Shown: positions 1 to 19,951 of the stretch, one piece after another | Layout of the letters: each line of letters starts with the position of its first letter | How positions within the stretch are numbered: position 1 is the first letter of the stretch | Assembly (NCBI GenBank): GCA_963804995.1 | Contig: CAWDSK010000005.1 | Span: forward strand, 128,001 to 192,000 | Direction: 5' to 3' | From: an uncultured Acidobacteriota bacterium | GTDB taxonomy: Bacteria; Acidobacteriota; Terriglobia; UBA7540 | DNA: 64,000 bases | The notes under the pieces: generated by a model | Database searches by the model: none | What the model saw: the letters and a program-made list of their open reading frames with translations, nothing else | Told to the model about the DNA's origin: nothing | Position numbers and translations under genes: made by a program

Positions 1-119
1 AACATCTATTCATCGTCCAGAATTCATAATTCACCTTTCACCCCTCACCCTTTACCCTTTGCAATTCCTTCCGCCCATGCGAGTATTCCCTTCCAACCGC
101 CATTACCGAGGTTCAAACC

Positions 120-155
120 ATGGCCAACCCAGAACACCTGAAGATTATTAAGTAG
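120..155 (+). pseudogene. N-terminal stub of a pentapeptide-repeat(-TIR) protein, cut by a REP
   Basis: GAGGT RBS then MANPEHLKIIK*, resembling the MANPEHLxIL start of pentapeptide-repeat/TIR proteins; the TAG stop is part of the GTAG of the following REP. Confidence 0.5.
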
Positions 156-201
156 CGCCGACCTTCAGGTCGGCACCTGCTGACCTAAAGGTCAGCGCTA
201 C
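152..201. repeat. GTAG-type REP doublet
   Basis: GTAGCGCCGACCTTCAGGTCGGC followed by inverted GCTGACCTAAAGGTCAGCGCTAC. Confidence 0.75.
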
Positions 202-228
202 GAAGCCCGCCTGGCGCTGCTAGGTTCT

Positions 229-571
229 AGCCCCAACGGGGCGTCCTAACAAAGCCCAGGGCAACGCCCTGGGTCAAGGAAGCCACCCCTTTCCATCGGT
301 AAGCCCTGAAGGGGCGCGCTAACCCTACTCACCATCGTGCCGGTTCGTTCCAGCCGGTCGGACGGTTCAGGGGGTTGCGTAGATCGCCCCTACAGGGCTC
401 GGGCCGGGAAACAATCTGTTGACCCAGGCCTTCGGCCCATAAGCGCTAAGATAAGGGCTCGATTCGGCGGTTTTTGAGCGGTTCAGTTTACCCAAATAGC
501 AGGATGGGGAGGTTTAACTTAGCGCTTATGGGCCTTCGGCCTGGGCTTTGTTAGGGCGCCCCTTTGGGGCT
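229..571. repeat. Long palindromic REPIN-like element (CCCAGGG type) interrupted by a MITE
   Basis: Terminal inverted repeat AGCCCCAACGGGGCGTCCTAACAAAGCCCAGG, 30/32 match to the reverse complement of 540-571. Confidence 0.7.
438..530. mobile_element. 93-bp non-autonomous MITE with IS4-family (IS186-like) ends
   Basis: IRs CATAAGCGCTAAGATAA / TTAACTTAGCGCTTATG (16/17); 11-bp direct repeat GGCCTTCGGCC at 427-437 and 531-541. Confidence 0.8.
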
Positions 572-780
572 CACAAGCGCGAAGTGCGGACCGGTTCGTT
601 AGGTCCGCGGCATTTTGTTGTCGATGGGGGGCGAACCGCCCCGATGAATCGGGGCGCTACCACCGCCCGCAGCAAGCCTCCAAGAGCGGGTAGCACAGCG
701 CGGCGAAGCCGCAACCCAACGCGTCGCCCCGATTCGAGTCTGGAAGTAAGCACCCTTCACTGCGGGCGCAGCCCGCTTTT

Positions 781-880
781 GGAGTGCGGTCGCAGCAGCT
801 ACCGCTTTCCGCCTTTGGTCCATACGGGAATGGTGCAAGAGCCAGACCCAGAAAAGCGGTAGCTGCTGCGACCGCACTCC
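781..880. repeat. REPIN-like inverted repeat (GGAGTGCG type)
   Basis: Perfect 28-bp inverted repeat at 781-808 / 853-880. Confidence 0.75.
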
Positions 881-988
881 GAAAGCGCTGCGCGCAGGAT
901 CCAACAATGGCTTGTCTTAAATAGGGCACCAATATACTTGACTCATCCACTGGGTTTTGGTATAGTTTTGCTTGTGAGGAGCGAAACC

Positions 989-1957
989 ATGCGCGAACCC
1001 CGTACCCTGCAAGAAGCCATTATCTATTTTTCGAACCCTGACAATTCCCGCGCCTACCTTGTGGCGAAGCGCTGGCCCCAGGGCGTCATCTGCCCAACCT
1101 GCGGGTCGGAAAAGGTCAAATTCAATCCGGCTCGCGGCGTCTGGCAATGCCCCCGCCATCATGCCCGGCGGCAATTCTCCGTCAAGGTGGGCACCCTGTT
1201 TGAGGATAGCGCCATCGGCCTGGATAAGTGGCTCACGGCGGTGTGGATGCTCACCAACTGCAAGAACGGTATCAGTTCCTATGAAGTAGCCCGCGACCTG
1301 GGGGTCACGCAAAAGACCGCCTGGTTCATGCTGCACCGCATCCGGCTGGCCTTGCAGGACGAGGGCGGCGGCAAGTTGGGAGGAGAAGTCGAGGTTGACG
1401 AAACCTTTATCGGCGGCCTCTCCCGCAACATGCACATCGGTAAGCGGCGGGAGAAAATCCAGGGCACGGGCGGGCGCGATAAAATTGCGGTCCTGGGAAT
1501 TCTGAAACGGCGAGGCAAAGTTCGCACTTCGGTCGTTCCCGATGTGACCCTCAAAACTCTTCGCGGCAGCGTTGTCGAAAACGTTTCGGCGGGCTCGCAG
1601 GTTTTCACGGACGCTTGGATTGGTTACCACGGGTTGGATTCCGAATATGTTCATAGCGTTATTGACCATGCCCAAGCCTATGCCGTGGAAAACGTCCACA
1701 CCAACGGCCTCGAAAACTACTGGAGCCTTTTGCAGCGCACCCTCCAAGGGACCTACGTTAGCGTCGAACCGTTCCATTTGTTTCGTTACCTTGACGAGCA
1801 AGCCTTCCGTTACAACCAGCGCGAAGGACTTGATGATCGTGGCCGCTTCGATGCGGCGGTTTCCAGGATCATCGGTAAGCGCCTCACCTGGAATCGCCTC
1901 GCCGGAAAGACGCAAGCTCGTCCAACCTGTTCTAACGCACAAGGCAAGGCAACGTGA
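989..1957 (+). CDS. IS1595-family DDE transposase
   Basis: GAGGAG RBS; Zn ribbon CPTCG..WQC; VEVDETFIGG, VFTD, HTNGLENYWSLL, YLDEQAFRYN motifs. Confidence 0.93.
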   Translation: MREPRTLQEAIIYFSNPDNSRAYLVAKRWPQGVICPTCGSEKVKFNPARGVWQCPRHHARRQFSVKVGTLFEDSAIGLDKWLTAVWMLTNCKNGISSYEVARDLGVTQKTAWFMLHRIRLALQDEGGGKLGGEVEVDETFIGGLSRNMHIGKRREKIQGTGGRDKIAVLGILKRRGKVRTSVVPDVTLKTLRGSVVENVSAGSQVFTDAWIGYHGLDSEYVHSVIDHAQAYAVENVHTNGLENYWSLLQRTLQGTYVSVEPFHLFRYLDEQAFRYNQREGLDDRGRFDAAVSRIIGKRLTWNRLAGKTQARPTCSNAQGKAT

Positions 1958-1974
1958 GCGCCGGGGGAAGCGGG

Positions 1975-2121
1975 TCAAGCCTTCGCCCGCTTCTTCCGCT
2001 GGCGTTGCTTCTTCCACTCCGCTTTCCTTCGCTGTAACTCCTCCCGCGGGACGGAGAAAATCTTGCTGATTGCAGCGTCGAAATTCTGGAATTCTGAGGT
2101 TTTTATCCCCTTCTGGCTCAT
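1975..2121 (-). CDS. 48-aa basic passenger ORF inside IS1595
   Basis: MSQKGIKTSEFQNFDAAISKIFSVPREELQRRKAEWKKQRQRKKRAKA, convergent with the transposase, helical and Lys/Arg-rich. Confidence 0.5.
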   Translation of the reverse strand: MSQKGIKTSEFQNFDAAISKIFSVPREELQRRKAEWKKQRQRKKRAKA

Positions 2122-2414
2122 AAACATTAAATGCCTCAGTCCGTGACAATACCTTATCCACTCAACATCGTACACCTCCAACCCGTTCATCTCGCACCTT
2201 TCGAATGGATGAGTCAAGTAAGTTGGTGCCTTAAATAGGCAGGAGAATCGCCGCACCTAACGCCCAAAATCTTTGCTAAAAAAACAAGCATCTACGGTAT
2301 TGCAATGCAGGGCGGTCAGCTATCAGCGGACAGCCCTCAGCGCACAGCGACCAAGAACCGGCACGGCGGAGTTTTTTACTGAGAACTGACTACTGATAAC
2401 TGATGACTGATTAC

Positions 2415-2606
2415 TTATGCTTCCTTTAGAAAATAGCTCGTGCTACGGCCACCCGCGGGGTCTTTGATCAGGATGTCGTGATCGACCAATTCGAGAATAT
2501 CGCGGTATGCCGTGTCCTGAGAGCACTTCGTCAGCTTTGCCCATTTTGAAGAAGTCAGCTTTCCATCAAAGCCATCCAGCAGCTTATTCAGGATAAGGCG
2601 TTGCCG
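2415..2606 (-). pseudogene. C-terminal winged-helix fragment of a Fic-family protein
   Basis: RQRLILNKLLDGFDGKLTSSKWAKLTKCSQDTAYRDI..GGRSTSY is the typical C-terminus of Fic/DUF4172 proteins; Fic domain absent. Confidence 0.75.
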
Positions 2607-2766
2607 TCGTCGAAGGGATGGACCGTGACGAACCACAAATGGCCTATGGCCGCTCTTAGAACCGGGTCTGTTTCGCCGGGCTCATTTGCCCAATCGATGA
2701 ATGCGGTCATTGATAAAATACGCACAATATGCGGGGATTACGGGCGGTATTCTCCGCAAGTAAAAG

Positions 2767-2958
2767 TTCGACGAAAATGCCAAGTGGGGTGAGCCGGTGT
2801 GGGGTGAGATTGACACTGCCATACGGCACTATGACAAGCTGGTGGTGATTTGCTCCGAGCATTCGCTGCAAAGCGAGCCCGTCATTCGCGAAATCGAGCG
2901 CGCCTTGCAGAAGGAAGACCGCGAACATAGGAATGTGCTCTTCCCCATCCGCATGTAG
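2767..2958 (+). pseudogene. TIR (TIR_2-like) domain fragment, not in ORF track
   Basis: FDENAKWGEPVWGEIDTAIRHYDKLVVICSEHSLQSEPVIREIERALQKEDREHRNVLFPIRM*; no convincing start, in-frame stop just upstream. Confidence 0.75.
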
Positions 2959-3063
2959 TGGGTCACGATGATGTTGTAGCGGCGAGTTTACCTCGCCCTT
3001 CTCGAGGCGGCATTACGCCGTCATATGGCGAGGTGAACTCGCCGCTACAAATTCACCCCCTAC
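2955..3063. repeat. Nested REPIN (GTAGCGGCGAGTTTACCTCGCC family)
   Basis: Inverted pair 2976-2997 / 3027-3048; same unit near 17325 and at 54732-54846. Confidence 0.75.
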
Positions 3064-3163
3064 GCTTTTTGTGTCGCCGCGGAATTTAGCTCGGCGGAAG
3101 CATTTTCGTGTAGCATACGAAGCGCGCAGAGGGTTCTTCGAATCATTCGGGCGGAGGTAGGAA

Positions 3164-3619
3164 ATGATCTTGGACGTGGTCGCAAACGAGGAAAGGTTGA
3201 AGCAGTTGCATCCCGGTTTCAGTCCCGCTCTGCAGTATCTGCGACGGACGAACTTGGGCGAGCTCCCCGAGGGGCGCCAGGAGATTGACGGTTCCCGGCT
3301 TTATGCCGCGGTTATTCGGGGTCAGGGCCGAGGTCAAAAAGGGGCAAAGCTGGAGGCCCACCGCCGGTACATTGATATCCAGTATTCCATCACGGGTTCG
3401 GACGTGATCGGCTGGAAGCCGACTTCCACTTGCCGTGATCCCGAGCAGGCCTACGACGAACAAAAGGATATCCAGTTCTTCCGTGACGCAGCGGACTCCT
3501 GGGTGACCATACCGCAGGGAAACTTTGGGATTTTCTTCCCTGAAGATGCCCATGCGCCGACGGGAGCCGACGGGCCGATTCACAAGGTGGTCGTCAAGGT
3601 CGCTGTCGATTGGGCGTGA
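3164..3619 (+). CDS. YhcH/YjgK/YiaL (DUF386) family protein
   Basis: GGAGG RBS; MILD start, LEAHRRYIDIQY, IFFPEDAHAP, KVVVKV motifs. Confidence 0.9.
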   Translation: MILDVVANEERLKQLHPGFSPALQYLRRTNLGELPEGRQEIDGSRLYAAVIRGQGRGQKGAKLEAHRRYIDIQYSITGSDVIGWKPTSTCRDPEQAYDEQKDIQFFRDAADSWVTIPQGNFGIFFPEDAHAPTGADGPIHKVVVKVAVDWA

Positions 3620-3694
3620 CGGCTGACAGGGAGGGGCGTCGCGACCCTGAATCGCCAGCGCGAACACGTTGCCCAAGCGCAAGCCAGGCCCCAA

Positions 3695-3928
3695 TCAGGT
3701 GTAAGGCGTGCGGGAGTGCGGCGGGTGGGCTTCGAATCGTTCCTGGGCCATCTCTTTCCACATTCGAGTCCGGCAATTCAGGACACGGAGGTATTCATGG
3801 CCAGGGGTGGCGGGACTGCGTGCCGTCTCGGCGAGCAGCCGGATCCCCAATAGCGAATCATTGGTCAGGCGGTCGCGCGTCAGAATCCGCTCCAAGAGAA
3901 GATCGTCGGTTAACAGGTTGGGTGTCAC
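3695..3928 (-). CDS. Hypothetical 77-aa protein
   Basis: GAGGAG RBS before a GTG start; no recognised family. Confidence 0.55.
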   Translation of the reverse strand: MTPNLLTDDLLLERILTRDRLTNDSLLGIRLLAETARSPATPGHEYLRVLNCRTRMWKEMAQERFEAHPPHSRTPYT

Positions 3929-4330
3929 AATATGCTCCTCTGAGGGGCCGGTAAATACTAGTCAATCAAGTCAATCAAGTGACCACGTAATAAATAGGTG
4001 CGACGCGCCAAACTCACTTGCCGGTTGGGCACCAGTACGAACCTCGTGCGATTCTTTATTTTGCATTGCGCTGAGCGTGTTCCCTCAGCGTTACCTGTCG
4101 GGCTTTAGCAATCCACGCTTTCGAGGTTAGGGTTTTCTTTTTGCGATCCTGAAATCACTACCGTAGGGCTTTTTCAGGAACCAAGCAATTGCGTCCCCTT
4201 GCTTGCGGCGACACTTCCATACGACCTGTGAGTCAGGTGAACCTGAGGGACTCCCCGTTCAAGCCACCCGCCCCAGGGGCGACACGCTATTCCAGGCGGG
4301 ACGAGCGGCAAGGCTACCAATCTACCCAAT

Positions 4331-4359
4331 AGGCTATGATTCTTTTCGACACTTGTCAA
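4331..4359 (-). promoter_or_regulatory. Sigma70-type promoter upstream of a ~390-nt leader
   Basis: TTGACA-17 bp-TAGCCT on the minus strand. Confidence 0.5.
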
Positions 4360-4543
4360 GGGCCGGAAGTTCAGCTTAGACAGGCTTATATCCGGGGTGG
4401 GTCTGGGGTTACGGGTGCTGGTGCGGGAGGGAGGCAGGGGTGGCCGGAAATGTTTAGCGGCGGCAGTAGCCGCACACCGTGGCGTGCCCCTACGACGATT
4501 TCTTCGCAGATGCTTTGCTCTTCAGCCTTGGCCAGCGGCCGGA

Positions 4544-5080
4544 CTAGTCATCACTCTTCTTGGGTGTTGATAACAAGTCCGACGGCGGCTCTGTCAGCGG
4601 AGAGTCCTCGCTGTGGGGTTCGGTTGCCATTCCGGCCATCTGGATAATCGATTCGGCCAGCAGATGCAGGCCATCGGCAGCCACCTTGTTACCCTTCATT
4701 TTCATGGCACTCAATTGCAGAATATTCTCCACGGTTTCTTTATAGAGGGTGCGGGTGTCAGGCGGTAGGGAACGCAAGAAAGCCGGGTCGAGGTAGCGTC
4801 GTTCCAATTCCGCCTGGCCGGGTGGCGTCTGCTTGCCCCGTGAGACATCTGTGGCTGGCGCGCCGGGTGGCGCTGTGGTGAATAGGGCACGGGTTTCCGC
4901 GTCGGGGCACAATTCCAGCAATCGCCGGAGACGATAGCCGCGTGGGGTGGAGCGCCCGGATTCCCAAAATTGCACGGCACTTAGGCTACAACCCACCCGA
5001 GCGGCAAGCTCCTGCTGAGTAATCTGTAGCCTTTCCCGAAGTGACGATACGGCACGCGGCTCTATTCTGGCAAATCTCAT
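4544..5080 (-). CDS. XRE/HTH_3 transcriptional regulator (CI-like position)
   Basis: LRERLQITQQELAARVGCSLSAVQFWESGRSTP helix-turn-helix; GAGG RBS; no S24 peptidase motif seen. Confidence 0.85.
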   Translation of the reverse strand: MRFARIEPRAVSSLRERLQITQQELAARVGCSLSAVQFWESGRSTPRGYRLRRLLELCPDAETRALFTTAPPGAPATDVSRGKQTPPGQAELERRYLDPAFLRSLPPDTRTLYKETVENILQLSAMKMKGNKVAADGLHLLAESIIQMAGMATEPHSEDSPLTEPPSDLLSTPKKSDD

Positions 5081-5090
5081 AATTTTCCTC

Positions 5091-5118
5091 TTGACTTACT
5101 AACGATTAAGTATACAAT
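5091..5118 (+). promoter_or_regulatory. Rightward promoter in the AT-rich divergent gap
   Basis: TTGACT-16 bp-TACAAT between head-to-head HTH genes. Confidence 0.5.
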
Positions 5119-5136
5119 AAAGCCTATTAAAAGGCG

Positions 5137-5430
5137 GTGAACAAAGTTCACCGACGTATAATGACGCAACTTAGCACAAAACGCCAGACAAAAAAACTTG
5201 ATCGCGACACCTTGCTTTCCATCCGCCGCACGCATGGAATGGCCGCCGCCATTGCCCGTGTGGCGGGCGTCTCACGTGGGTTTGTCAGCGAGGTGCTAAC
5301 TGGGCGGAAGCGGCCCAGCGCGCGCTTTTTGGCGGCCTTACCGTGTGCCTTTGACCTGGTCACTTTGCAGTCGGGGGCACGCCTAGACGAGCTGGAAGCA
5401 TCCAGCCGAGAAGACGAGCAGAAGAGGTGA
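5137..5430 (+). CDS. Cro-like HTH protein (alternative start 5161)
   Basis: AAAIARVAGVSRGFVSEVLTGRKRPS HTH signature, divergent from the XRE gene. Confidence 0.75.
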   Translation: MNKVHRRIMTQLSTKRQTKKLDRDTLLSIRRTHGMAAAIARVAGVSRGFVSEVLTGRKRPSARFLAALPCAFDLVTLQSGARLDELEASSREDEQKR

Positions 5431-5438
5431 CCTGCGTC

Positions 5439-5660
5439 ATGGCTGAACAGAACAAAGTCGAGTTCGGTATCACGGTTAGTCATCGGCTCCCCGAAAGTTT
5501 GGTGGCCAGCGTCGACCAGTGGGCGAATAGGACTTGGCGCGATCGTGCCAAGATCCTATCGGCGATATGTTGCCGCGTCCTGGAGATGGTCCGCCAAGAG
5601 GGGGGCTTTAAGCAAGATCTAAGTGATGTCCTACGCCGTTTACGTCTCGATCCGGCATAA
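5439..5660 (+). CDS. Ribbon-helix-helix-like small DNA-binding protein
   Basis: GAGGTGA RBS; ITVSHRLPESLVASVDQWANRTWRDRAKIL fits a strand-helix-helix CopG/Arc pattern. Confidence 0.6.
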   Translation: MAEQNKVEFGITVSHRLPESLVASVDQWANRTWRDRAKILSAICCRVLEMVRQEGGFKQDLSDVLRRLRLDPA

Positions 5661-5805
5661 AAAAATTTTCCGGCAGTTTGTCTTCTATGTCTATTTCGTA
5701 TTTAAAGCTTACAGGGGTTGATCCCCTGCACACCTCGAGGTGTGTCCAGTCGTCCTTCATCATCCGGCTGCGCGTCACTGACGCGCAGAAGGTAGGTGAG
5801 GGATT

Positions 5806-5862
5806 ATGCGGAGCCAACCGCAAGGCGGACCCCATCCGCCTATGCCTTGGCCGCCACGTTAG
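5806..5862 (+). CDS. 18-aa proline-rich peptide MRSQPQGGPHPPMPWPPR (unannotated)
   Basis: AGGTGA Shine-Dalgarno 6 nt before ATG; in-frame stop just upstream; 7 Pro including two PP pairs. Confidence 0.55.
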   Translation: MRSQPQGGPHPPMPWPPR

Positions 5863-5877
5863 GGCGGCTCGCACGCG

Positions 5878-5908
5878 CCGGGGCCTCCCGGCATTCGGGA
5901 GGTCCCGG
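5878..5908 (+). promoter_or_regulatory. Hairpin sequestering the RBS of the downstream membrane-protein gene
   Basis: 13-bp stem CCGGGGCCTCCCG-gcatt-CGGGAGGTCCCGG (one G-U); 3' arm contains GGAGG and the G of the GTG start; no U-tail. Confidence 0.65.
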
Positions 5909-6438
5909 TGAAATCGTATGCCATCTATTTCGCTGCCTGTGCTTTGCACTTTGTGCTGCTTTTCCTCTTCAGCAACCAACAGTTATATCAGCGTTACCCT
6001 TTCTTTATGCTCTGGCTGCTGGCCGAACCCTTTTCCAATCTCGCGCTCTGGGTACTCTATTGGTCGAAGGAATTTCCCCTGATGACCGCCGCCAAGAATG
6101 GCTTGGACATCTTGTGGTACGGCATCCTGGCCGCCGCCCTGGTGCAAGCCTGCCTCGCCTGGGGAGACCCCATCGGCGGCGTTCTCCGCCGAGGGATCAT
6201 TGCCTTGGTGCTTCTCGCCGTGATCGGTCGTGAAGCCGGAGGAATGAAGCTGGCGGGAGGGTTCGGAGTGGCTCTCGCCACCGCCATGAACCTGGCCTAT
6301 ATGGCTCCCACAGTTTATCTGGTGGCAAAGCTTTCCGATATACGCCTGGAGCGTATTCCACTTTGGCTGCGAGAAGACGTTCCTTGGGTGAGCGCGGCAC
6401 GTCAAGTCTGGGGTTACGCCCATTCCCTGCTCAGTTGA
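5908..6438 (+). CDS. Hypothetical integral membrane protein (~5 TM)
   Basis: Five hydrophobic segments, LYQRYPFF loop after TM1, GGAGG RBS. Confidence 0.8.
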   Translation: MKSYAIYFAACALHFVLLFLFSNQQLYQRYPFFMLWLLAEPFSNLALWVLYWSKEFPLMTAAKNGLDILWYGILAAALVQACLAWGDPIGGVLRRGIIALVLLAVIGREAGGMKLAGGFGVALATAMNLAYMAPTVYLVAKLSDIRLERIPLWLREDVPWVSAARQVWGYAHSLLS

Positions 6439-6524
6439 TGGAAAGGTCAGAATTTTAATCCTTAGTTGCAGTGATTTTGTCATGATTACCATGTATACAA
6501 TGTATCACAATTTACTAGGCACCC

Positions 6525-6959
6525 ATGAAGACCTCTAGCGTCCCGAGCCAAAAGATCGTTGAACAAGTCAGTCCCAATGAACCGGGATGCAACGTGTTGC
6601 CTGGCCACCAACGCGGCAGGCTGACAGCGCCACTCCGGTTCAATTCCCACCATTACTCAGCGAGAAAGCACTGGGCAGAACGGCCCACCTCCCATCCTAT
6701 ACCGACGACGGCACCCACATTTATACCAGCCTTCTTCTTTTCCCCTCATCCTCCTGCCACCCTACCGTTCCGCCCAGCGCTTTCTCGCCGAGAAAAACAA
6801 ATATCTCAAGGGATCAAAGACGCCGCGCCATCCACGCTTGGGCTCTTCAGCTCCTGCTCTGCCTCTTGCGAGGCGCAAAGCCAAGGCCCAGGACGGATCC
6901 CTGCGCCGGCCATCCCCAGCCCCCAGCGAAAGGTAGTTCATGCGACTCCTGATTGTTGA
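6525..6959 (+). CDS. Hypothetical Pro/Ser-rich ORF (doubtful)
   Basis: ATG after an AT-rich segment, overlaps the next start; no recognisable domain. Confidence 0.3.
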   Translation: MKTSSVPSQKIVEQVSPNEPGCNVLPGHQRGRLTAPLRFNSHHYSARKHWAERPTSHPIPTTAPTFIPAFFFSPHPPATLPFRPALSRREKQISQGIKDAAPSTLGLFSSCSASCEAQSQGPGRIPAPAIPSPQRKVVHATPDC

Positions 6960-7460
6960 AGACAACGAGTATCTCGCGGAAGTCACCGCGCAACTTCTAC
7001 ACTCCTTCGACCGGCAAGCGCGGCGAACTCGAAGAGCATTACCATTGCCGGTGACCTTGAGACAGCCATCTACTTCCTTCCCGAGCACGATGCTGTCCTC
7101 TGTGACGGGCGGTTTCCAATTTCTCTTAACTCCCGCTTCATCGCGGAAGAGTGGGATGTGGTCCGGCACGAAGCCGACCGCCGAGGCATCCACTTTGTCC
7201 TCTACAGCGGCTGCGTCCCCGCTCTTCTTTCCGCGCGCGAGGCCAACACTCCGGCGCTTGCCAAACCCGCGCCCATAGAGGAAATCTATGCGGCAATTAC
7301 CGGTCCGAAGTCGGGTACCCACGGTCCGAAGTCAGGGGATGACACCTTGGGAATGGGGGGGAACTTGATTGCACGGAGTTCAGTGCTTGCGTGCGTCGCG
7401 CCAAGCCAGCCACAGGCAGCCATCGGCAGTCAAATCAAGCTGATTTCTGAGGGCGGATAG
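6940..7460 (+). CDS. Stand-alone response regulator receiver domain, frameshifted at ~7026-7033
   Basis: MRLLIVEDN.. joins in another frame to ..DAVLCDG..FVLYSG..LAKPA; acidic pocket, Asp acceptor, Ser and Lys all present. Confidence 0.75.
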
Positions 7461-7482
7461 CTCGGAGCTAGAAGGGGGTTTT

Positions 7483-7725
7483 GTGCACCAGGCCTTCGAA
7501 CAATACTGTGAAGTAGTCAGGGCAAAAGCGGCCCAACTCGGAGAAGAAGCCGAGATGCGCGCCCGTTTCGAGCATCTTCGGGCCTTCAATTTTGGCCGCT
7601 CGATTCAGCACCTCGAAAACTCCCAACACGAGTTGCGGATGCGCTTGTGCTGGCTGCTGTTGGGGGCGGCAATGGGCGCTGCCTTGGTGGCGGGATTCCT
7701 GCACATGTTGGGTCGCGCACCCTAA
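7483..7725 (+). CDS. Hypothetical protein with C-terminal TM helix
   Basis: Helical N-terminus plus LCWLLLGAAMGAALVAGFL; AGGGGG RBS. Confidence 0.6.
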   Translation: MHQAFEQYCEVVRAKAAQLGEEAEMRARFEHLRAFNFGRSIQHLENSQHELRMRLCWLLLGAAMGAALVAGFLHMLGRAP

Positions 7726-7950
7726 GGTTTAGGACCCACCCTGAACTTTTGAAGTCTTAAGCCTGCTCAGCTCATTCGCAGGCAGTGTTGAATAGGCCGG
7801 TACAGTTGAACCAATCGAAAAAGCTGAACCATCAACTTCTCAACTCTTCAATTCCATCGAAGCGGCGCCTCGAACGCCAGTCAAAATGCGAGGTTCCAAC
7901 CGCTCGATCGCTAAATCTCGAAATACTCGAATTTTTGCCGGAGGGGAAAA

Positions 7951-8175
7951 ATGAGATGTCCAAAGTGCGGAGCCATTACGGAAGTAAGACAGAAACGCGG
8001 GCCCTTTCGCGACCGCCGCTGCGTTAATCCAGCCTGCATTTTTGGTTTTACCACCTGCGAGAACCTCGCGACTCAGAACGAACACCAGCGCATAAACGCC
8101 AAGGCCCTGGCGCGGCGATGCGAAGAAGGCGTTTATTCACCTGCCGAGCTGCAGAAGGCAGCAGCCGCGGGGTAG
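7951..8175 (+). CDS. Zn-ribbon protein (NrdR-N / Ogr-Delta-like)
   Basis: GGAGG RBS; MRCPKCG...RRCVNPAC...FTTCE. Confidence 0.7.
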   Translation: MRCPKCGAITEVRQKRGPFRDRRCVNPACIFGFTTCENLATQNEHQRINAKALARRCEEGVYSPAELQKAAAAG

Positions 8176-8338
8176 GAACATGGACGTGGTTGATTGAAGG
8201 CCTTTGATTTGCATGAACCGGGGATCGCGAGAACAGCGATCAGCGGTCAGCAATCAGTTTGGGCTACTCTCCATACGCCGTCTGAGCGCATGGCAGATTG
8301 CACAACTCGCACCAGCCGCGATGTCTGCGTGGACTTCT

Positions 8339-9682
8339 TTAGGGAATGGGAAGCTGGGAGCGGTCCTGCCGCCGGGCGACCTTTTTTTGCAGCCTCTCCA
8401 GGCGGTGCGCGAAGCGGGGTGTGTGCTTTTGTAGGGCCAGGGCTTGCCCCGGCTCCAGGCCGGCCCCAGGGGCGGCTCCACCTGCCAGACGTTCGAGGGC
8501 GGCCAAGGTAAATTCCATCGCGCCTTTCGGATCGCGCCGATGGTGCTCGTAATGAATTGCCAACTCCTCCAAGGCTTCGAGAGCCAGCGGGGACGGCCGC
8601 CGGGTGAGCTCGAGCCAAGTCTCTACAGCCAATTCGTGTCGGTGCTGCCGCTTGTACTGCAAGGCCAACTGGTGCAGCGCTCGGGCCGCGATTTCTTCCG
8701 GCAAACCGCCGGAGAGGGCCCGCTGGCAGGTCTCAACCGATTGCTGCCTTGAGCCCGCGGTTTCAAACATGCGGCTGAGGCTGAAGAGATCCACGGGAGA
8801 GTCGAGGGTGCTCGCGCCCGCGTCGCCAATGGCTCGGGCCAATTCCACGGTCACGGCGGCGAGGGTGATGATATCCAGCGCATTGTGGTAGAACACGGGT
8901 TGGAGGCCGCGCGCGTCACCGGTGCGCAGGTAATCAAAGTAAATGCCGGGGATTTCTGAGCCGGCCACGTCGCCTTCGCGGCCGATTCCCAGCACCGCGC
9001 TTTCGAGGTCGGTCAGCTTGCAACTCTCCAGGCGCAGTTTCCAGAGGCGCCGGGCTGGGTGCAGGGCATCGAGGTGCAGCAGTCTCGCGAAAGGCGACCG
9101 CAACCGCGCCAGGGCGTAGCGGGTCTCGAGCAGCGGCACGTCGAACGTCTTTCCGTTGTAGGTTACCAGACCCTCGCAGGCCCCCAGCACTTCCGCCAAG
9201 TCTTGCAGGATGGCCTTCTCTTCCGGATAATCCCGCAAAAAGAACTGCCTCACTACGAATTGAGTTCCTTCGACCGTGCCGATCCCGATCAGGAACGCAC
9301 AGGTTCCCGTTCCACCTGCGAGGCCTGTGGTTTCGGTGTCGAGGTAAACCAGCCGCTCGGGCGCGGGCATGGCGGCCTGGGGGAAAAGCAGATTCAGCGG
9401 GGTTAAGTCGGCCGTCGAGATGTCACCGATGCGCAGCTTGCCGTAGGGCCTGCCGAAGGGAAAGGCCTGCCGGGCCACAAAGTATTCACCCCAATCGTTT
9501 TTGGCCAGGGCGCCATCCACGTACTCCTCGATGCCTTTGGCCACTCGCTGCGCGGGGAGCTGGCGCGGTTCGGGCGGCTGGTCCAGTCGACGCAGGTATT
9601 CGAGTGTTTGCTCGAGCTCGCGATCAGGGTCGCGAGGCTGGGCGGCCTTCTTAAGCTGGCGAAGTTTTTGATCGAGGTTCAC
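8339..9682 (-). CDS. RNase_H_2 (DnaQ-like) exonuclease with TPR C-terminus, YprB/MrfB-like
   Basis: YLDTETTGLAGG, VTYNGKTFD, HNALD motifs; EELAIHYEH TPR region; GTG start at 9682 preferred. Confidence 0.88.
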   Translation of the reverse strand: MNLDQKLRQLKKAAQPRDPDRELEQTLEYLRRLDQPPEPRQLPAQRVAKGIEEYVDGALAKNDWGEYFVARQAFPFGRPYGKLRIGDISTADLTPLNLLFPQAAMPAPERLVYLDTETTGLAGGTGTCAFLIGIGTVEGTQFVVRQFFLRDYPEEKAILQDLAEVLGACEGLVTYNGKTFDVPLLETRYALARLRSPFARLLHLDALHPARRLWKLRLESCKLTDLESAVLGIGREGDVAGSEIPGIYFDYLRTGDARGLQPVFYHNALDIITLAAVTVELARAIGDAGASTLDSPVDLFSLSRMFETAGSRQQSVETCQRALSGGLPEEIAARALHQLALQYKRQHRHELAVETWLELTRRPSPLALEALEELAIHYEHHRRDPKGAMEFTLAALERLAGGAAPGAGLEPGQALALQKHTPRFAHRLERLQKKVARRQDRSQLPIP

Positions 9683-9695
9683 AAGCAAACCAAAC

Positions 9696-9768
9696 CGCAG
9701 AGACGCAGAGACGCTGAGGGCGAAGCTTCGGTTTTCAAATCTCAGCGCCTCCGCGCCTCTGCGGTGAG
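9696..9768. repeat. REP-like palindrome (CACCGCAGAG type)
   Basis: CGCAGAGACGCAGAGACGCTGAG..CTCAGCGCCTCCGCGCCTCTGCGG; relatives at ~12435-12565 and ~50986-51063. Confidence 0.6.
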
Positions 9769-12220
9769 ACAGTGTCAATCATACGGCGTAGAATCTCCAG
9801 CGCGACCTCTTTCCCTTTTTCTCCGATTTCCCCCACCGGCCCCACGCAGGAGGGGCATCCCGTGGGGCAGGGGCACTCTGCGATCAGCTTGTGAGTCTTC
9901 TGAGCAACGAGTCGGCCAGCCGGAACAGCGGCTCGCTCAGCCCCACGCCTCCGGGGTAGGAATCGTAGAGATAGATGTTAGGCTCGAACACCTTTCGCAC
10001 CACCGTGCGCTTGCCCAGCTTTTCGATGGGAGCTTCGGGTTCTCCGGAAACTTCCAGCTCGGCGTTCTCTCCCACGGAAGTCCCCAGGTCACGAGCGTCG
10101 CACATGACGAGCAGCGTGGCAATAGCTCCCAGGGCATTCGCGAGGCCGTTCACGCCGTCGAGCCGCTCGGTGGAATTGTAAGGCAAGGTATCCATCATGG
10201 GGCGTGGCAGGGTCAGCCAAAACGCGGTGGTGTGCATCTCCTGCTCAGGCAGGGTCAGCTCACCCGAGCCTACGTTTTCCATGGTGTAGAACTTGATCTT
10301 CTTGAAGCCTACCACCTGTGTGTTTACCTGAACTTCGCCGTGATTCTTGCTCGCGGCCCCGCCTGCAGGCCGAAGCTTGAATGCTGTCTCCCCATCGGCC
10401 GTAGGCCCTTGGGCGGGCGTAGGCCCAGCCGGAGCGGAGTCGAACGTCTCCAGGATTTTGATTTTGGTGTATGAGATGGCGTCAGTGAAGTATTCGGAAT
10501 CAACATGATGCACGTAGGCCTTCCGATCGTCGTAGTCGAGGCGCTCGACGTGATATTGCACGCCATCCTGGATGTAGATGGCTTTCTCGTGCAGCGTGGT
10601 GAGGGCGCTGGAGAAGTCCGTCTCACCGATCACCCGCGGTTCGTGCGTGTTATCCACGATCACGAAGTTGTCCGAGGAAACGGAGCGCAGGCTGATGGCG
10701 TCGGCGGGATAGCTTTCCGACAGCCAGTGCCAACCGTCTGAGGTGTGATGCAGAAAGCCGGTCTCTTCCAGGTGCTCGCAGAGCCGCTTTAGATCGAGTG
10801 CGCCGAATTTTTCGTCCTCGCGCAAGGGCAATTCGAATGCCGCGCACTTCAGATGATTGAGAAGGATAAAGAGATTGTCGGGGTTCACGTAGCCGTGCTC
10901 GGGGGAGCGGCCGAAAAAGTACTCAGGGTTCTGCACCATGAATTGGTCGAGCGGGGCGCTCGAGGCGATGAGCACTGCGGCTGAGATTCCTTGTCGACGC
11001 CCGGCGCGGCCCGCGCGTTGCCAGGTGGAGGCAATCGTTCCCGGATACGCGGCGAGCAGCGCCACATCCAGGCTGCCGATATCGATTCCGAGTTCGAGAG
11101 CGTTGGTCGCCACCACACCGCGCAACTGGCCGCTGCGCAAGTCACGCTCAATGGCGCGGCGCTCCAGCGGCAAGTAGCCTCCGCGATATCCACGCACCGC
11201 TTCCGGCCCCGCGGGCGCTTGTGAGAAATCTTCCTTGAGATAAGTCACCAGGATTTCAGTGGCCAGGCGGCTGTTGGCGAAGACGATGGTCTGAAGCCCG
11301 CGCGAGAGGAAGGTCCGCGCCAGGCGCCGCGTTTCATTCAAGTACGACCGGCGGATCCCCAACTGCGGGTTGACCACGGGCGGGTTGTAACAGACGAAGT
11401 ATTTCTCCGCCGCCGGCGCCCCGTTGTCGTCAATGAGCGTCACATCCTCTTCCAGGATGCGGGCGGCAAGCTCTTGAGGATTGGCAATCGTCGCCGAGGT
11501 ACAAATGAACTGCGGATGACTTCCGTAAAAATGTGCCACGCGCTTGAGCCGGCGCAGGACATTACCCAGGTGGCTGCCCAGAACCCCGCGATAGTAGTGC
11601 AGCTCGTCGATGACCACGTAGCGCAGGTTTTCAAACAGCCGCTGCCACTTGGTGTGGTGAGGCAGGATGCCGGCGTGCAGCATGTCAGGATTGGTGATCA
11701 CCAGATTGCCGCGCGCGCGAATGGCTTTGCGAGCATCCTGCGGCGTGTCACCGTCGTAAGTGAAGGTGCGAATTTCATCGCCGAGCTGCTCGGTCCAGCG
11801 ATTCAGCTCTACGAGCTGGTCCTGCGAGAGGGCTTTGGTGGGGAAAAGATAAAGCGCATGAGCCTCAGGGTTCTCAATAAGCTCGCTCAGGATCGGCAGG
11901 TTGTAACACAAGGTCTTGCCCGATGCCGTGGGCGTGACGACCACCAGGTTCTTGCCCTCACGCGCCAGATCGAAGGCCAGCGCCTGGTGGGTATACAATG
12001 AGGGAAACCCGCGAGCCTTCAGAACCTCCGCAAGCCGGGAGGGCAGAGAAGTGGGGAAGGGCGCCACGCGCGGCTCGCGAGCGGGGAAGTGCCGGATTGC
12101 GGTCACGCCGCCTTGGGCACGTGAGGCACGGAACTTTTCTGCGATTTCCTTGAGCGCGCTTTCGACGGGGGCGAGATCCTTCGGTTGGAAGCTTATTAAG
12201 GCGTCGGCTTTCGGTTCCAT
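9735..12220 (-). CDS. DEAD/DEAH-box helicase with DUF1998 (YprA/MrfA/Hrq1-like); 1-nt deletion at ~9902
   Basis: PTASGKT, DELH, SAT, ALELGID, QRAGRAGR motifs; CPCPTGCPSC cluster continues in another frame to a stop at 9735. Confidence 0.92.
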
Positions 12221-12657
12221 CCCAAATCCCTTCCCAAGTGTCAGGCATTAGATTGACAAAAGCGACTATCCCACCACTCCCCAATAATAGGCCCTATACG
12301 GTGCTCCGATCAGGGTTGTCCCATGCCTTCGCCTTTTATTCGCTCACTTTAGCACAGTCAGGAGGCCGCTCAAAGAAGAGAGTTAGAAGGAATGGGGATC
12401 TTATCTCCCAGCGCGGTTGTAGGCCGCAAGATTTCACCAAGGCGCCGATAGAGGTCACGGAGAGCAGGTTCAGATGAAGAATTTGGGTTAACAAGTTAAG
12501 GAGCCGCCCGCCCTTGCGGCGCAAGCAGGAGTTCTTTTCTCAGTGATCTCTGTGTGCTCCGTGGTAGGCCCTTCCTGCCGCCTGAAGAAAACGAATCAGC
12601 CGGGCGAAATATCCGGCAAGACACGTCCGGGGTCGAAAGAATCGGGCATACAGTCGA

Positions 12658-12686
12658 TTGACTTTGCCCTTTCATAATCTGATAAT
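12658..12686 (+). promoter_or_regulatory. Sigma70-type promoter candidate for the fused E1 gene
   Basis: TTGACT-17 bp-GATAAT. Confidence 0.4.
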
Positions 12687-12759
12687 CTGGGTTGGGAAGA
12701 GTCGAAGTCTGCTGTGGGAACTGGAATTTCTGCCGGCACCTAACGTCCTACGAGGGACT

Positions 12760-14874
12760 ATGTCTACCACTACAAACCATGTCCTGAAGGCTGCCAAGCT
12801 CTCACGGGGGTTACTTCTGGGCGCGTACCGAACCATGTACACATCGCGCCGCGTGGATGAAAAAGAGATCCAGCTCAAGCGTCAGAATCGAGCCTTTTTC
12901 CAGATCAACGGGGTGGGGCACGAATGCATCGGTGTCGCCACAGCATTGCACCTCAGACCTGGATACGACTGGTTTTATCCTTACTATCGCGACCGGGCAT
13001 TCTGTCTCCAGATTGGCATGACGCCGCACGAGATGCTGCTGGCTTCCGTGGGAGCGAAGGACGATCCCGTCTGCGGCGGCCGTCAGATGCCTTCGCATTG
13101 GGGATCGAAGAAGCTTCACATCATAACGGGCTCGAGCCCCACCGGCACACGCATCCTGCATGCTGTGGGTGCGGCGGAAGCCAGTTGGTACTTCTCCCAA
13201 ATCCAGGAAGCGGCGGAGCTTGCCTCCAGTTTTCACGATGACGAGGTCGCTTACGTCTCACTGGGCGACGGCGCTTCGAGCGAAGGTGAATTTTGGGAGT
13301 CGCTCAACTGGGCTTGCGGCCGGAAGCTGCCGGTCCTTTACGTGGTCCAGGACAATGGCTACGCGATCTCGGTGCCGGTCGATATCCAGACCGCCGGGGG
13401 AAGCATTTCCCGCCTGGTGCGAAGTTTTCCCAATCTGCTGACGCTGGAGTGTGATGGCACGGATTTTCCCGAGAGCTACGAGGCGGTGGGGAAGGCGGTC
13501 GAGCACGTCCGCCAGCGGAAGGGGCCGGCGCTGATTCATGCTCACGTGGTTCGTCCCTACTCGCATTCGCTCTCTGATGACGAGCGGACGTACAAGCCGG
13601 AGGAAGTTCGCCAACAGGAAGCCAAGCGTGACCCGGTCATCCGGCTGGCCAAGCTCCTCCAACAAGAAAAGCTGGTCACGGAAAGGGAGTTGAAGGAGAT
13701 GGAGGCGGAGGTCGAGCATGGCGTGCGCGAGGCCGCGGACCGGGCGCTCGAGGCCGAGCCCGTCTCGCCTGACACCGTGCTGCGGTACATCTACTCGCCC
13801 AGCGCGGATCCCACCTCCGGGCAATTCGATCATCCGCCCAAGTTTCACGGTGAGCCCAAGACGATGGTGGACCTCATCAACGCCTGCCTGCGGGACGAGA
13901 TGACCCGCGATCCGCGCGTGGTGGTCTTTGGCGAGGACGTTGCCGACTGCGGCCATGAAAGCGATTTGACGAAAGTAAAAGGCAAGGGCGGTGTTTTCAA
14001 AGTCACCCACGGCTTGCAGAGGCATTTCGGCGGCACGCGCTGCTACGACACATCCCTGGCGGAAGCCTGCATCGTGGGCCGCGCCATCGGCATGGCCACG
14101 CGAGGGCTGAAGCCCGTGGTGGAGATTCAGTTCTTTGATTACATCTGGCCGGCGATGATGCAGATTCGGGATGAAATGATCAACCTGCGCTGGCGGTCCA
14201 ATAATATGTTTGCCTGCCCGCTGGTCATCCGTGCGCCCATCGGCGGCTACCTGGCGGGCGGCGCCATTTACCACAGCCAGTCCGGGGAATCGATCTTCAC
14301 TCACCTGCCGGGACTGCGCGTGGTGATGCCCTCCACCGCGCTCGATGCCAACGGCTTGCTGCGCACGGCGATCCGTTCCGACGACCCGGTGCTCTTCCTT
14401 GAGCCCAAACATCTCTACCGCCAGACGCACAATCGCTCCCCCTACCCGGGACCCGATTACATGATTCCCTTCGGCAAAGCCAAGCTGGTGCGCGAGGGGA
14501 CGTCGTTGACGATTGTGACTTATGGATCGCTGGTGGTTCGCTCCGTACAGGCCGCCAAGGTTCTGGAGCAAGAGGGAATTCAGCCGGAGATCCTGGATTT
14601 GCGCTCCCTCAGCCCCTATGACTGGGATCTGATTGCGGCGTCGGTGAAAAAGACGAACCGCGTCCTGGTTCTTCACGAGGATTGTATCTCCTGGGGCTAC
14701 GGAGCCGAGATTGCCGCCCGGATTGCCGATGAGCTGTTTGAGTTCCTCGATGCGCCGGTGCGCCGCCTGGCGGGGAAGGACGTCTTCGTTCCCTATCACC
14801 CCGTGCAGGAAGATGCGGTGCTTCCCCAACCCGCGGATATTGTGCAGGTGGCGACAGCCTTAGCGGCGTACTGA
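12760..14874 (+). CDS. 2-oxoacid dehydrogenase E1, fused alpha+beta (branched-chain type likely)
   Basis: [11 protein letters not shown] ThDP motif, HSLSDD loop, FGEDVA, EIQFFDY, YHSQS, transketolase C domain. Confidence 0.9.
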
Positions 14875-15011
14875 ATAGGGATTTGGGGTTAGGGATTAGG
14901 GATTGGGGGTCCAGGACACCAACTCCTTTGTTTATTTGCGGCCCCATTTGATTTCATCATCGGATTCTGAAAATCCAAATCTCGCCCGATTCCCCTATTT
15001 CGAATCCTGAG

Positions 15012-15067
15012 CCCCAAACCCCAAACCCCAAACCCCAAACCCCAAACCCCAAACCCCAAACCCCTAA
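15012..15067. repeat. Heptamer tandem repeat (CCCCAAA)7 CCCCTAA
   Basis: Read directly; complementary G-rich heptamers at 14877-14909. Confidence 0.95.
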
Positions 15068-15241
15068 CCTCACCCGACCTCCTCGGCCCTCGTCGAGCCG
15101 GACATGCAGATTTCCCTCCTCATTTGATTCATTTTCTTACCTGACACCGCCGATTATCGATATGGGAAAGTGTGACACGGCAGGAGGGTGATCGGTTGGG
15201 TGCTGGGCCGTCAGTTCATCAGCACAAGGCAAGAATCCATA

Positions 15242-15729
15242 GCCCTCTCCGAGGGGAGAGGGTGGACCGCCGCCGGCGCTTTTATCAGCCGGGGCGGGAC
15301 GGGTGAGGGGTCACTTTGTGATGAGGTAGATGGGCCGAGGATCATGACCGCCTACCTCCCAAGGTGCGGCACTTATGCGCCACGACGGTAATCGGGAGAT
15401 CGGGACAATGAGGCTTTGAGTGATTTTGCGATTGGGCGATTTGGTAATTTTCAAACCTCCAGCCGATTTTTGGCTCAGGTTTGGGTACCAACGCGCCGAT
15501 AACCGATACGGGGAAGTGTGTCACGGTGCGGTTGGGGGTCTGTTGGGGGAATGGAGCAGCGGGACATCGGTTAATCAGCAAGAGGTGAGAAGTCATGGCC
15601 CTCTCCGAGGGGAGAGGGTGGCGCGCTGCCAGCGTTTTCATCAGCCGGGGCGCGACGGGCCTACGCCCACCGAAGGGGCACATGGAGACTGTAAACAACT
15701 TCGGCTTCGGCCCGCAGGCGGGTGAGGGG
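15242..15729. repeat. Two copies of the GCCCTCTCC-GGAGAGGG..GGGTGAGGGG palindromic repeat with shared upstream flank
   Basis: Copies at 15242-15310 and 15597-15729; further copies at ~43979-44052 and 58007-58075 (inverted). Confidence 0.8.
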
Positions 15730-15882
15730 TCACTTCCCAGGCGGTGCATATTGACCGAACGTTGTGACCGCATACATGCCAAAATACGCCACGTATGCGC
15801 CACCCCCCCAATTCCCAACCCCGAACCCCTAACCCCGAGCTTTGCGGGGCGGCGGACCTCCCTGACACGGCCGAATGGTGTG

Positions 15883-16509: not shown

Positions 16510-16519
16510 TCATTCCTCC

Positions 16520-19878: not shown

Positions 19879-19951
19879 GGGTGTAGGCGGCGGTCCACCC
19901 TCTGTCGCCGCAGCGACCGAGGGCTGAACATTCGAATCGATGGAGCAAAGT

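Follow-up and report, generated by a model that had tools for sequence, protein, structure and literature searches.

A phage-type control arm with a conserved receiver, tail-anchored protein and Zn-ribbon trio, apart from its probable head-tail target genes in an Acidobacteriota genome

Phages P2 and 186 and the element P4 combine a CI-type repressor with a divergently encoded Cox or Apl protein, and their late genes are activated by the Zn-finger proteins Ogr, B and Delta (PF04606). The P2-type late promoters contain a dyad centred at -55, and P4 carries the late-promoter signal of P2. Phage Mu has the c repressor and Ner, the activators Mor and C and a Mu-type head module, whereas the gene transfer agent of Rhodobacter capsulatus is controlled by CtrA and GafA. 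Here we analysed a block of small genes in a 64,000 nucleotide stretch (the window) of an uncultured Acidobacteriota bacterium (assembly GCA_963804995.1, contig CAWDSK010000005.1, positions 128,001 to 192,000). The block consists of divergent genes for an XRE-family and a Cro-like protein and, behind the latter, genes for a ribbon-helix-helix (RHH)-like protein, an 18-codon open reading frame (ORF), a membrane protein (MEM), a receiver, a tail-anchored protein and a Zn-ribbon protein (Table 1). A first reading made from the sequence only had taken it for an orphan decision module. We find it probable, at roughly three chances in four, that these genes form the early regulatory arm of a head-tail cluster of phage origin, 165 kb away from the genes that the arm precedes in relatives, with the Zn-ribbon protein as the predicted activator. 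The phage family itself is undescribed. The novelty lies in a phage-type control arm with an unusual, conserved receiver/tail-anchor/Zn-ribbon trio, which is naturally apart from its targets. In the following, G000 is the genome under study, C5 is its contig that holds the window, and the other G numbers are related genomes.

As far as the comparison goes, the logic of the system is closest to P2, 186 and P4, its head genes to Mu, and its near-universal presence without mobility genes to gene transfer agents. Like P2, 186 and P4, the arm has a divergent pair of a repressor and a small helix-turn-helix (HTH) gene and a protein of 70-80 amino acids (aa) with a CX2C...CX4C arrangement encoded before the late genes. 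The late promoters have an upstream dyad and other elements in the cell bear the same late-promoter signal. Unlike in P2, 186 and P4, the Ogr_Delta match of the arm stays below threshold, the dyad is found near -61, the head genes are of the Mu type with no P2-like genes, and there are extra receiver, tail-anchored and five-transmembrane (5-TM) proteins. With Mu the system shares the portal and protease families, the repressor gene divergent from a small HTH gene and the position of the activator gene just before the lysis and head genes, but no MuA/MuB-type transposase is present among the scanned ORFs of G015 and G043, and the activator would be a Zn-ribbon protein instead of a Mor/C HTH protein. 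As with the R. capsulatus gene transfer agent, the head-tail cluster is present in nearly all genomes of the taxon (24/29 here), no integrase or replication gene occurs in the annotated copies (G013, G015 and G043), a receiver-domain protein appears in the control path and a promoter signal is common to dispersed loci. It differs in that the regulators including the XRE/Cro pair are encoded in the element and that the chromosomal position is not conserved. With an XRE-family and a Cro-like gene that diverge from a short, AT-rich control region the arm resembles lambda CI/Cro, but there is no S24 autocleavage domain, a single palindrome stands in place of tripartite operators, and the RHH-like protein is the best conserved one.

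The assignment to a head-tail cluster comes from the relatives. A DNA search of 41 related genomes detected parts of the module in 11 genomes of the genus, outside the mrfB region, and 12 loci from these 11 genomes were analysed with tblastn. The receiver was found at 11 of the 12 loci, the tail-anchored and the Zn-ribbon protein at ten each, XRE and Cro at two (G015 and G007) and RHH at three, one of them partial. MEM is present in full length at one locus (G022) and as C-terminal fragments with stops at four. In G043, a genome of seven contigs, the genes for XRE, RHH, MEM, receiver, tail-anchored and Zn-ribbon protein are encoded in the order of the window, followed by the whole late region on the same 2.8-Mb contig; G015 has the same order with the MEM gene missing. 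Downstream of the Zn-ribbon gene both genomes have a variable slot and then the late genes, which code for a glucosaminidase endolysin, TerL (Terminase_6N/6C), a portal protein (Portal_Mu, E 1.5e-38), a protease (Mu-like_Pro, E 1.7e-19), the major head protein (phrog_1005, E 1.4e-68) and tail proteins, among them Ig-domain and very large proteins. A 25-kb late block is likewise located downstream of the trio in G001, G006 and G013. The ORFs scanned in the elements of G015 and G043 include no gene for an integrase, for replication or for a transposase (MuA/MuB-type or other), and the sole DDE gene belongs to an insertion sequence (IS) within the G013 copy. The sequence-only reading had named findings that would speak against it, namely genes that do not occur together elsewhere and neutral decay. 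The arm genes do recur together, both at the tblastn loci and in G043, and all six intact arm genes are under purifying selection, with ratios of nonsynonymous to synonymous substitution rates (dN/dS) of 0.06-0.30, so that neither of the two applies. These ratios indicate long-term constraint, but say little on the time since the split. It had also named the remnant of a known prophage early region, and this comes near to what we find, the early arm of a phage-derived cluster, except that the phage family is not a described one.

The particle genes are widespread in the genus. Of 29 genomes of the genus, 24 have a match to the head protein (E≤1e-20; identity 91-100% in 23 of them), 20 to the Zn-ribbon profile (E≤1e-3) and 14 to the receiver profile (E≤1e-5); the genomes without a match include incomplete ones. 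In seven genomes (G015, G043, G018, G008, G042, G002 and G020) the Zn-ribbon gene precedes the head gene by 14.7-20 kb, with both encoded on one strand. Conservation is higher for the head protein than for the beta-CASP housekeeping protein (80-89% identical), and the identity of the head protein to any isolated phage is 34% at most. The chromosomal position of the cluster varies in the genus. In G043 the element is located between tRNA-Val and HD/beta-CASP genes, and an integrase and a Phage_CRI-type Rep are encoded across the adjacent tRNA-Val. The right flank of G015 is common with G043, and nine other genomes have no beta-CASP gene on the contig of the cluster. No direct repeat longer than 13 bp that could represent att sites was found between the left and right ends of the G043 element. 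The site of this element is unoccupied in G000 (C6:1,992,267-1,992,743).

Some further observations concern these loci. The genes for the integrase, of the tyrosine type, and for the Phage_CRI-type Rep of G043 belong to a small element (C7:641,000-647,120, L038) that also contains unknown ORFs. It abuts the 3' end of tRNA-Val and is the immediate neighbour of the large phage-like element. Beside the empty site in G000, tRNA-Val is accompanied by three partial tRNA-like copies (C6:1,992,342-1,993,466; 81-84% alike), which may be traces of repeated integration or excision. In a second sub-family (G001, G003, G006, G013 and G019; for instance L015:854-1762) a conserved protein of 230-300 aa without a Pfam family is encoded directly before the receiver, where the window has a gap of 500 bp. 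The trio of G013 (C29:65,646-68,284, L021) is damaged, with a frameshifted receiver gene and a tail-anchored gene that was not found; an IS (DDE_Tnp_1_4) is inserted between Zn-ribbon and lysin genes, and several extra head-gene copies are present at 84% identity. The Zn-ribbon of G007 is truncated.

In G000 the two parts are separated. Seventeen late-gene queries from G015, from the lysin to the tape-measure-like gene, match C5:301,658-326,936(+), each in one place, and the arm proteins match G000 only at C5:131,698-136,172. Since each family is matched once in the genome, the two arms are complementary. They are co-oriented on the same contig, 164.9 kb apart, with the late arm outside of the window, and the distance from the Zn-ribbon gene to the head gene is 179 kb. 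Homology to G015 spans C5:301,057-331,716. At the early arm the homology to G043 and G015 ends at the Zn-ribbon stop codon, and it resumes about 600 bp before the lysin gene; approximately 670 bp of the G043 variable slot are present at neither junction. The sequence TTTGGGCTAC downstream of the Zn-ribbon gene equals the left half of the late-arm dyad described below and is the only GGGCTAC/CTACCGG-type word in window positions 3600-8400. This half dyad at 8258..8267 is a possible scar of the break. The surroundings are rearranged as well. The genes that neighbour DUF386 in G020 and G004 have their G000 counterparts on other contigs, and the DNA beyond mrfB differs in nine relatives. Because the flanks differ in every relative, no insertion boundary can be drawn at mrfB or DUF386. 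Particle and lysis genes had been reported as absent. This holds inside the window, where a homology search for the G043 integrase and for the late genes found no relatives, but not for the genome, in which they follow 165 kb onward on the same contig. With lysis and capsid genes on this contig and the arm contiguous with the late genes in G043, the orphan status of the block has to be abandoned.

A common promoter signal precedes the late genes. Before the first late ORF of G000, G015 and G043 we found the dyad CTACCGGTAG, followed after about 19-22 bp by CTCTTGACAAC and a -10-like box, and the same arrangement is present in G006, G010, G013, G019 and G022. Altogether, the dyad was located about 19-22 bp upstream of CTTGACA in eight of ten Zn-ribbon-to-lysin regions scanned in relatives; it was not found in these regions of G001, G003 or G021. 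The dyad is centred near -61 of the late promoter. Two promoter-like units stand in tandem before the late arm of G000 (C5:300,713-301,114) and together contain four copies of the dyad TTTGGGCTACCGGTAGCCCAAA; the complete dyads extend over C5:300,717-301,109. This 16-mer has 56 copies in G000, for the most part about 20 bp ahead of TTGACA. The signal is also dispersed in the genome. The extended dyad GGGCTACCGGTAGCCC has 56 copies in G000, and 51 dyad site-orientations have TTGAC or TTGCA 8-34 nt downstream; 41 of these 51 sites have at least 150 nt of downstream sequence in common. A 384-aa ORF of one such dispersed cassette has no Pfam family. Copies of the dyad with GC flanks number 61 in G000, 10 in G007, 7 in G015 and 4 in G043, and the TTCCTACCGGTAGGAA-type dyad (at most one mismatch) is present in 15-63 copies in 15 genomes compared to 0-5 for the controls. 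One dyad precedes a DDE transposase gene (C5:267,357-269,246).

The trio is the only regulatory gene set that is present in both element sub-families. Alignment of ten intact receiver copies showed that D8, D55 and K108 are invariant, that E7 and P109 are each kept in nine, and that a serine or threonine is located in the FVLY(S/T) motif at the end of strand 4. By our own reading of the alignment, these residues would form the receiver pocket with an acidic pair, the phospho-acceptor D55, the S/T and the K-P at the positions known from CheY. The AlphaFold2 model (predicted local distance difference test, pLDDT, 81) has a (beta-alpha)5 fold with five strand-helix units. Nearly all Foldseek matches listed are response-regulator receiver domains or regulators (E about 2e-6, TM-scores 0.6-0.75), and a profile search against the PDB gave only receivers, with CheY2 as best match (E 0.03). 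No Pfam family, including Response_reg (PF00072), was assigned to the intact G015 copy (E≤0.01) or to the two fragments in the window (E≤0.1). The proposed lone receiver is thus borne out in fold and motifs, but not as a single ORF, since a net +2 insertion splits the frame. The tail-anchored protein has a cytoplasmic helical part of about 55 aa followed by a C-terminal TM segment (dN/dS 0.25). Eleven aligned sequences share an invariant core of H31, A34-F35, R39, E45, R54 and W57-L58 and the hydrophobic tail, and the gene is always located between the receiver and the Zn-ribbon gene.

The Zn-ribbon protein is the sole DNA-binding-type protein of the trio. Its motif CPxCG-x17-C-x4-C is followed by FTTxE, and C3, C6, C24 and C29 are invariant in ten sequences (dN/dS 0.16-0.30). 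The alignments confirm both a membrane-anchored small protein and a C4 Zn-ribbon, as originally proposed. Nine of the ten Zn-ribbon members match Pfam Ogr_Delta (PF04606) below threshold at E≤10, with a best E-value of 6.5e-5, and seven match Zn_ribbon_NrdR (best E 0.0081); in the Atlas, the closest clusters (scores 0.87-0.89) consist of Zn ribbons of the NrdR type and include two viral ones. The suggestion of an Ogr/Delta-type late activator gains from these nine matches and from the position of the gene just upstream of the late operon in intact relatives, but the gathering score is not reached. Neither receiver nor Zn-ribbon had a match in 50,697 phage records, and one scan of IMG/VR gave no relative of the receiver. 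With TerL as query, IMG/VR contained only distant relatives and the 74.6-kb record G045, which encodes a 38%-identical receiver 60 kb from the late genes and has no recognisable partners. At the level of titles and abstract openings we found no published account of a module of this kind.

The repressor side of the arm was characterised by profile searches. The XRE protein has an N-terminal HTH (Pfam HTH_3, E 2.5e-9) followed by an unassigned C-terminal part of about 110 aa; its PHROGs matches are transcriptional repressors and regulators, and it is 70-75% identical in G015, G007 and G043 (dN/dS 0.13-0.17). Pfam matches at E≤0.1 comprise HTH families only and no S24 peptidase, in line with the earlier statement that the repressor has no self-cleavage domain. 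The Cro-like protein matches HTH_31 (E 2.4e-5) and HTH_3 (E 1.3e-4), both slightly below the Pfam cut-offs, and the HTH DNA-binding protein family phrog_3642. It is 69-72% identical in G015 and G007 (dN/dS 0.22), and in G043 a diverged Cro-like ORF begins at a conserved ATG. The gap between the two genes has 27 G+C in 80 nucleotides (34%) compared to 59% over the window. A rightward sigma-70-like promoter (TTGACT-16-TACAAT, 5091-5118) scored 10/12 in the promoter scan, which together with the Pfam HTH matches verifies the divergent pair with an AT-rich promoter gap that had been read from the sequence. Further downstream the perfect 7-3-7 palindrome GGTGAACAAAGTTCACC (GGTGAAC-N3-GTTCACC) is located at 5136-5152. 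It occurs once in the window without mismatches, and the only other match at up to three mismatches, at 38392, is within chance expectation. Across four genomes the conservation of the control region amounts to 84%, and the promoter hexamers, the palindrome and ATG 5161 are all retained. The conservation makes ATG 5161 the likelier start of the Cro-like protein.

The best conserved gene of the arm encodes the RHH-like protein, which is 88% identical to the copies of G043 and G015 (dN/dS 0.06-0.07). An ORF is indeed present where an RHH protein had been annotated, but it has no Pfam or PHROG family. The top PDB match of its profile is a CopG-family RHH protein (6xrw_B) at a weak E-value of 0.044, and RHH_1 is assigned to 11% of the members of a single Atlas cluster, which ranks 26th; the RHH assignment is therefore a weak one. 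The Pro-rich ORF that had been noticed next to it is also present as 18 codons in G043, equal in length and register and with the P-x-P-P-x-P-x-P-P-R end kept. The prolines are kept in G022 as well, where only the 3' part was compared. In metagenome contigs with 94-95% identity four of the seven changes in this ORF are synonymous changes at third positions of Pro codons (codons assigned by eye). The ORF looks more like a candidate translated leader of the MEM gene than like a secreted signal.

MEM belongs to a narrow family without a Pfam entry: a search of 5.8 billion proteins gave 17 homologues (54-97% identical), of which 15 have a length of 176-177 aa. The alignment of 18 sequences has 51 invariant columns and no internal indels (dN/dS 0.14). 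The AlphaFold2 model (pLDDT 69.6) contains five TM helices, as expected from the first inspection, and a C-terminal helix; Foldseek found nothing at E≤0.001 and a VIA-wide search only generic helical bundles (Z≤7.8). Since MEM is missing from G015 and G007 and broken into C-terminal fragments with stops in G001, G006, G003 and G013, it is accessory to the arm. Control of the block by peptide and membrane signalling had been put forward. We could not substantiate this: by sequence reading the 18-aa ORF has no signal-peptide-like hydrophobic N-terminal stretch, MEM is accessory, and no receptor-type family was found among the arm proteins with Pfam and PHROGs. The gap between the MEM and receiver genes contains an inverted repeat (6653-6683 and 6765-6795), of which the arm cores GGGC(A/G)GAACGG and CCGTTCCGCCC are kept in G043 and G022. 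It is unique in the genome, which rules out a miniature inverted-repeat transposable element (MITE), and it could be an RNA hairpin or a pair of protein sites.

From these data we propose the following mechanism. The XRE protein likely keeps the TTGACT-16-TACAAT promoter shut via the 7-3-7 palindrome that closely follows this promoter. Loss of repression would allow transcription of the rightward operon, with the genes for the Cro-like and RHH-like proteins, the leader ORF, MEM, receiver, tail-anchored and Zn-ribbon protein. The Zn-ribbon protein, being Ogr/Delta-like, is predicted to activate the late dyad promoter: it would bind the dyad near -61 and turn on the genes for lysis, packaging and particles. 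In G000 it would have to act in trans, possibly also on the approximately 60 dispersed dyad-promoter cassettes. A host kinase would supply phosphate to the receiver, which would thereby gate the Zn-ribbon step. One partner (the receiver or the Zn-ribbon protein) would be held or sequestered at the membrane by the tail-anchored protein, and the Pro-rich leader would tune MEM translation. A more far-reaching idea is that the arm is the master switch of a gene-transfer-agent-like system of Acidobacteriota, in which the Zn-ribbon protein fires the distant cluster and about 60 cassettes in trans and the receiver and the tail-anchored protein tie the decision to the host phosphorelay. This we regard as rather unlikely. 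If true, one controller encoded by the element itself would unite an XRE/Cro switch of the phage type with an input resembling that of CtrA, and would still function at a distance from the genes that it controls. On our main reading the particle cluster of a widespread soil genus gains its missing control region, and the block formerly called orphan gains a concrete target. A stand-alone receiver together with a tail-anchored protein and an Ogr/NrdR-like Zn-ribbon is an unusual control set for a phage, and the case is one in which a natural split would turn a cis-linked phage circuit into a trans-acting one. If the Zn-ribbon protein reads the dyad, a programme across the whole genome would depend on a single small protein, and the existence of a gene transfer agent in Acidobacteriota becomes testable.

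The copy in G000 is not undamaged. The receiver gene has two single-A insertions, at about 7027 and about 7032, which amount to a net +2 compared to seven relatives; in the assembly residues 1-26 are encoded in frame 1 from 6940 and the rest in frame 3 up to 7460. Both insertions are absent from contig X1 (92% alike) and from X6, a 99.3%-alike peat metagenome contig of depth 2. Compared to G043 and G015, the portal gene is also frameshifted, by a +1 insertion near C5:310,415. Because the receiver frame is intact in the 99.3%-identical contig, the indels are either very recent or assembly errors. A base-calling error linked to the motif CTCGAG is not indicated, as its 1701 copies are not depleted. 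None of the sequencing runs screened contained more than 0.11 of the sampled words, none covered the whole stretch, and no RNA run was listed. Particle production is probably lost or failing in this strain, unless the indels are assembly errors.

Several points weigh against the preferred reading, including the predicted role of the Zn-ribbon protein. The Zn-ribbon protein of the window itself reaches only 9.3 bits (E 1.5) on Ogr_Delta, for which the cut-off is 26.3, and the 7-3-7 palindrome is present in one copy, unlike the multi-operator design of lambda. G017 has 58 dyads though the Zn-ribbon profile found nothing there, which rules out the dyad as a Zn-ribbon-specific marker. As dyads are abundant in the genomes, including this one without a Zn-ribbon match, a host factor may read them. 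The split rests on one assembly, the two arms could in principle derive from two different elements, and with receiver and portal both frameshifted the system may be dead here. An explanation that we consider unlikely is that both arms were left by one or two decayed prophages and that the arm is without function in this strain. The +2 and +1 frameshifts in receiver and portal fit such wreckage, as do the gene debris around the arm, including a TIR fragment at 2797-2958, the rearranged region with DUF386 neighbours on other contigs and different mrfB-side flanks in nine relatives, and the damage at other loci, with a frameshifted receiver and an IS in G013 and a truncated Zn-ribbon in G007. 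On the other hand, only one of the seven protein genes is broken and the other six have low dN/dS, and the intact receiver frame in the 99.3%-identical contig makes the damage very recent or an assembly error. The halves are also exactly complementary without any duplicated gene, which favours one split element over two independent wrecks.

If assembly errors are extended from the indels to the 165-kb gap itself, the real element would be contiguous and both gap and frameshifts would be faults of the nine-contig assembly. Two single-A insertions 5 bp apart that are absent from the nearest metagenome contigs could be explained in this way, and no sequencing run with the whole stretch was found to check the junctions. 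Yet both junctions, at window positions 8175-8339 and at C5:300,292-301,057, are internal to a 1.3-Mb contig and are bordered on their outer sides by ordinary genes, mrfB/mrfA (77-85% identity to 19 relatives) and a CN-hydrolase gene. About 670 bp of the G043 stretch between Zn-ribbon gene and late promoter are missing at both of them, and motif-linked base calling offers no explanation, with CTCGAG not depleted. We consider an artefact improbable. Even less credible is the original proposal of an orphan domesticated decision module that is independent of particle genes and has its output by a secreted peptide and membrane sensing. It accounts for the lack of integrase, capsid and lysis genes inside the window, for six intact genes under purifying selection and for an 18-aa ORF and a 5-TM protein that are conserved in G043 and, at least partly, in G022. 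It is at odds with seven other genomes in which the Zn-ribbon gene precedes the co-oriented head gene by 14.7-20 kb, with the contiguous arm and late genes of G043 and with the late arm present once in G000. Moreover, MEM is absent in G015 and G007 and reduced to fragments with stops in G001, G006, G003 and G013, and the 18-aa peptide has no signal-peptide-like stretch. An early regulatory arm that was split from its head-tail cluster thus remains the reading that we prefer.

Table 1. Features of the regulatory arm and its flanks. Positions are those of the window; a slash separates alternative starts.
Feature	Position	Strand	Remarks
DUF386 gene, left flank	3164..3619		Pfam
77-aa ORF, function unassigned	3695..3928	-	repressor side of arm; conserved
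XRE-family repressor candidate, 178 aa	4544..5080	-	Pfam HTH_3
Divergent control region	5081..5160	.	promoter and palindrome between XRE and Cro-like genes
Cro-like HTH protein, 89 aa	5137/5161..5430	+	invariant ATG 5161; ORF opens with GTG 5137
RHH-like small protein	5427/5439..5660	+	weak RHH assignment
18-codon Pro-rich ORF MRSQPQGGPHPPMPWPPR	5806..5862	+	46 nt ahead of membrane gene
176-aa membrane protein (MEM), 5 TM	5908..6438	+	AlphaFold2 model
Inverted repeat, 31-nt arms 81 nt apart	6653..6795	.	gap between MEM and receiver genes
Single-domain CheY-like receiver, two frames in assembly	6940..7460	+	fold and motifs
80-aa tail-anchored protein	7483..7725	+	alignment; C-terminal TM segment
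74-aa C4 Zn-ribbon protein	7951..8175	+	alignment; predicted late activator
Half late-promoter dyad TTTGGGCTAC	8258..8267	+	83 bp past Zn-ribbon stop
RNase_H_2/MrfB-like gene, right flank	8339..9778	-	Pfam; 778-aa ORF comes after

Homologues of the 77-aa ORF are encoded left of XRE in G015, G007 and G043; its minus frame shows a coding-like G+C content at third codon positions, and it has no Pfam family. The DUF386 and mrfB-like flanks named in the sequence-only reading were confirmed with Pfam. No tRNA was found in window positions 1-20000. Left of DUF386, gene debris is located at 2415-2958. It includes a 53-aa TIR fragment (TIR_2, E 1.1e-7) at 2797-2958 and, at 2415-2725, ORFs that by eye resemble what we take to be pieces of a Fic-type gene (HPFDDGN). 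On the other side, a 76-nt dispersed repeat (9695-9770; 59 blastn matches in G000 and many in relatives) covers the 5' end of the long mrfB ORF, and the annotated start of this ORF is therefore probably too far upstream. A hairpin of about 130 nt at 765-894 matches an Rfam miRNA model on both strands with 50 bits against a gathering score of 110; it has 82 blastn matches in G000 and the appearance of a MITE-type repeat. A match to the Acido-Lenti-1 RNA reaches the gathering score (38.2 compared to 37 bits) and is accompanied by a weaker second copy of 24.4 bits; the two are located at 229-273 (-) and 540-571 (+).

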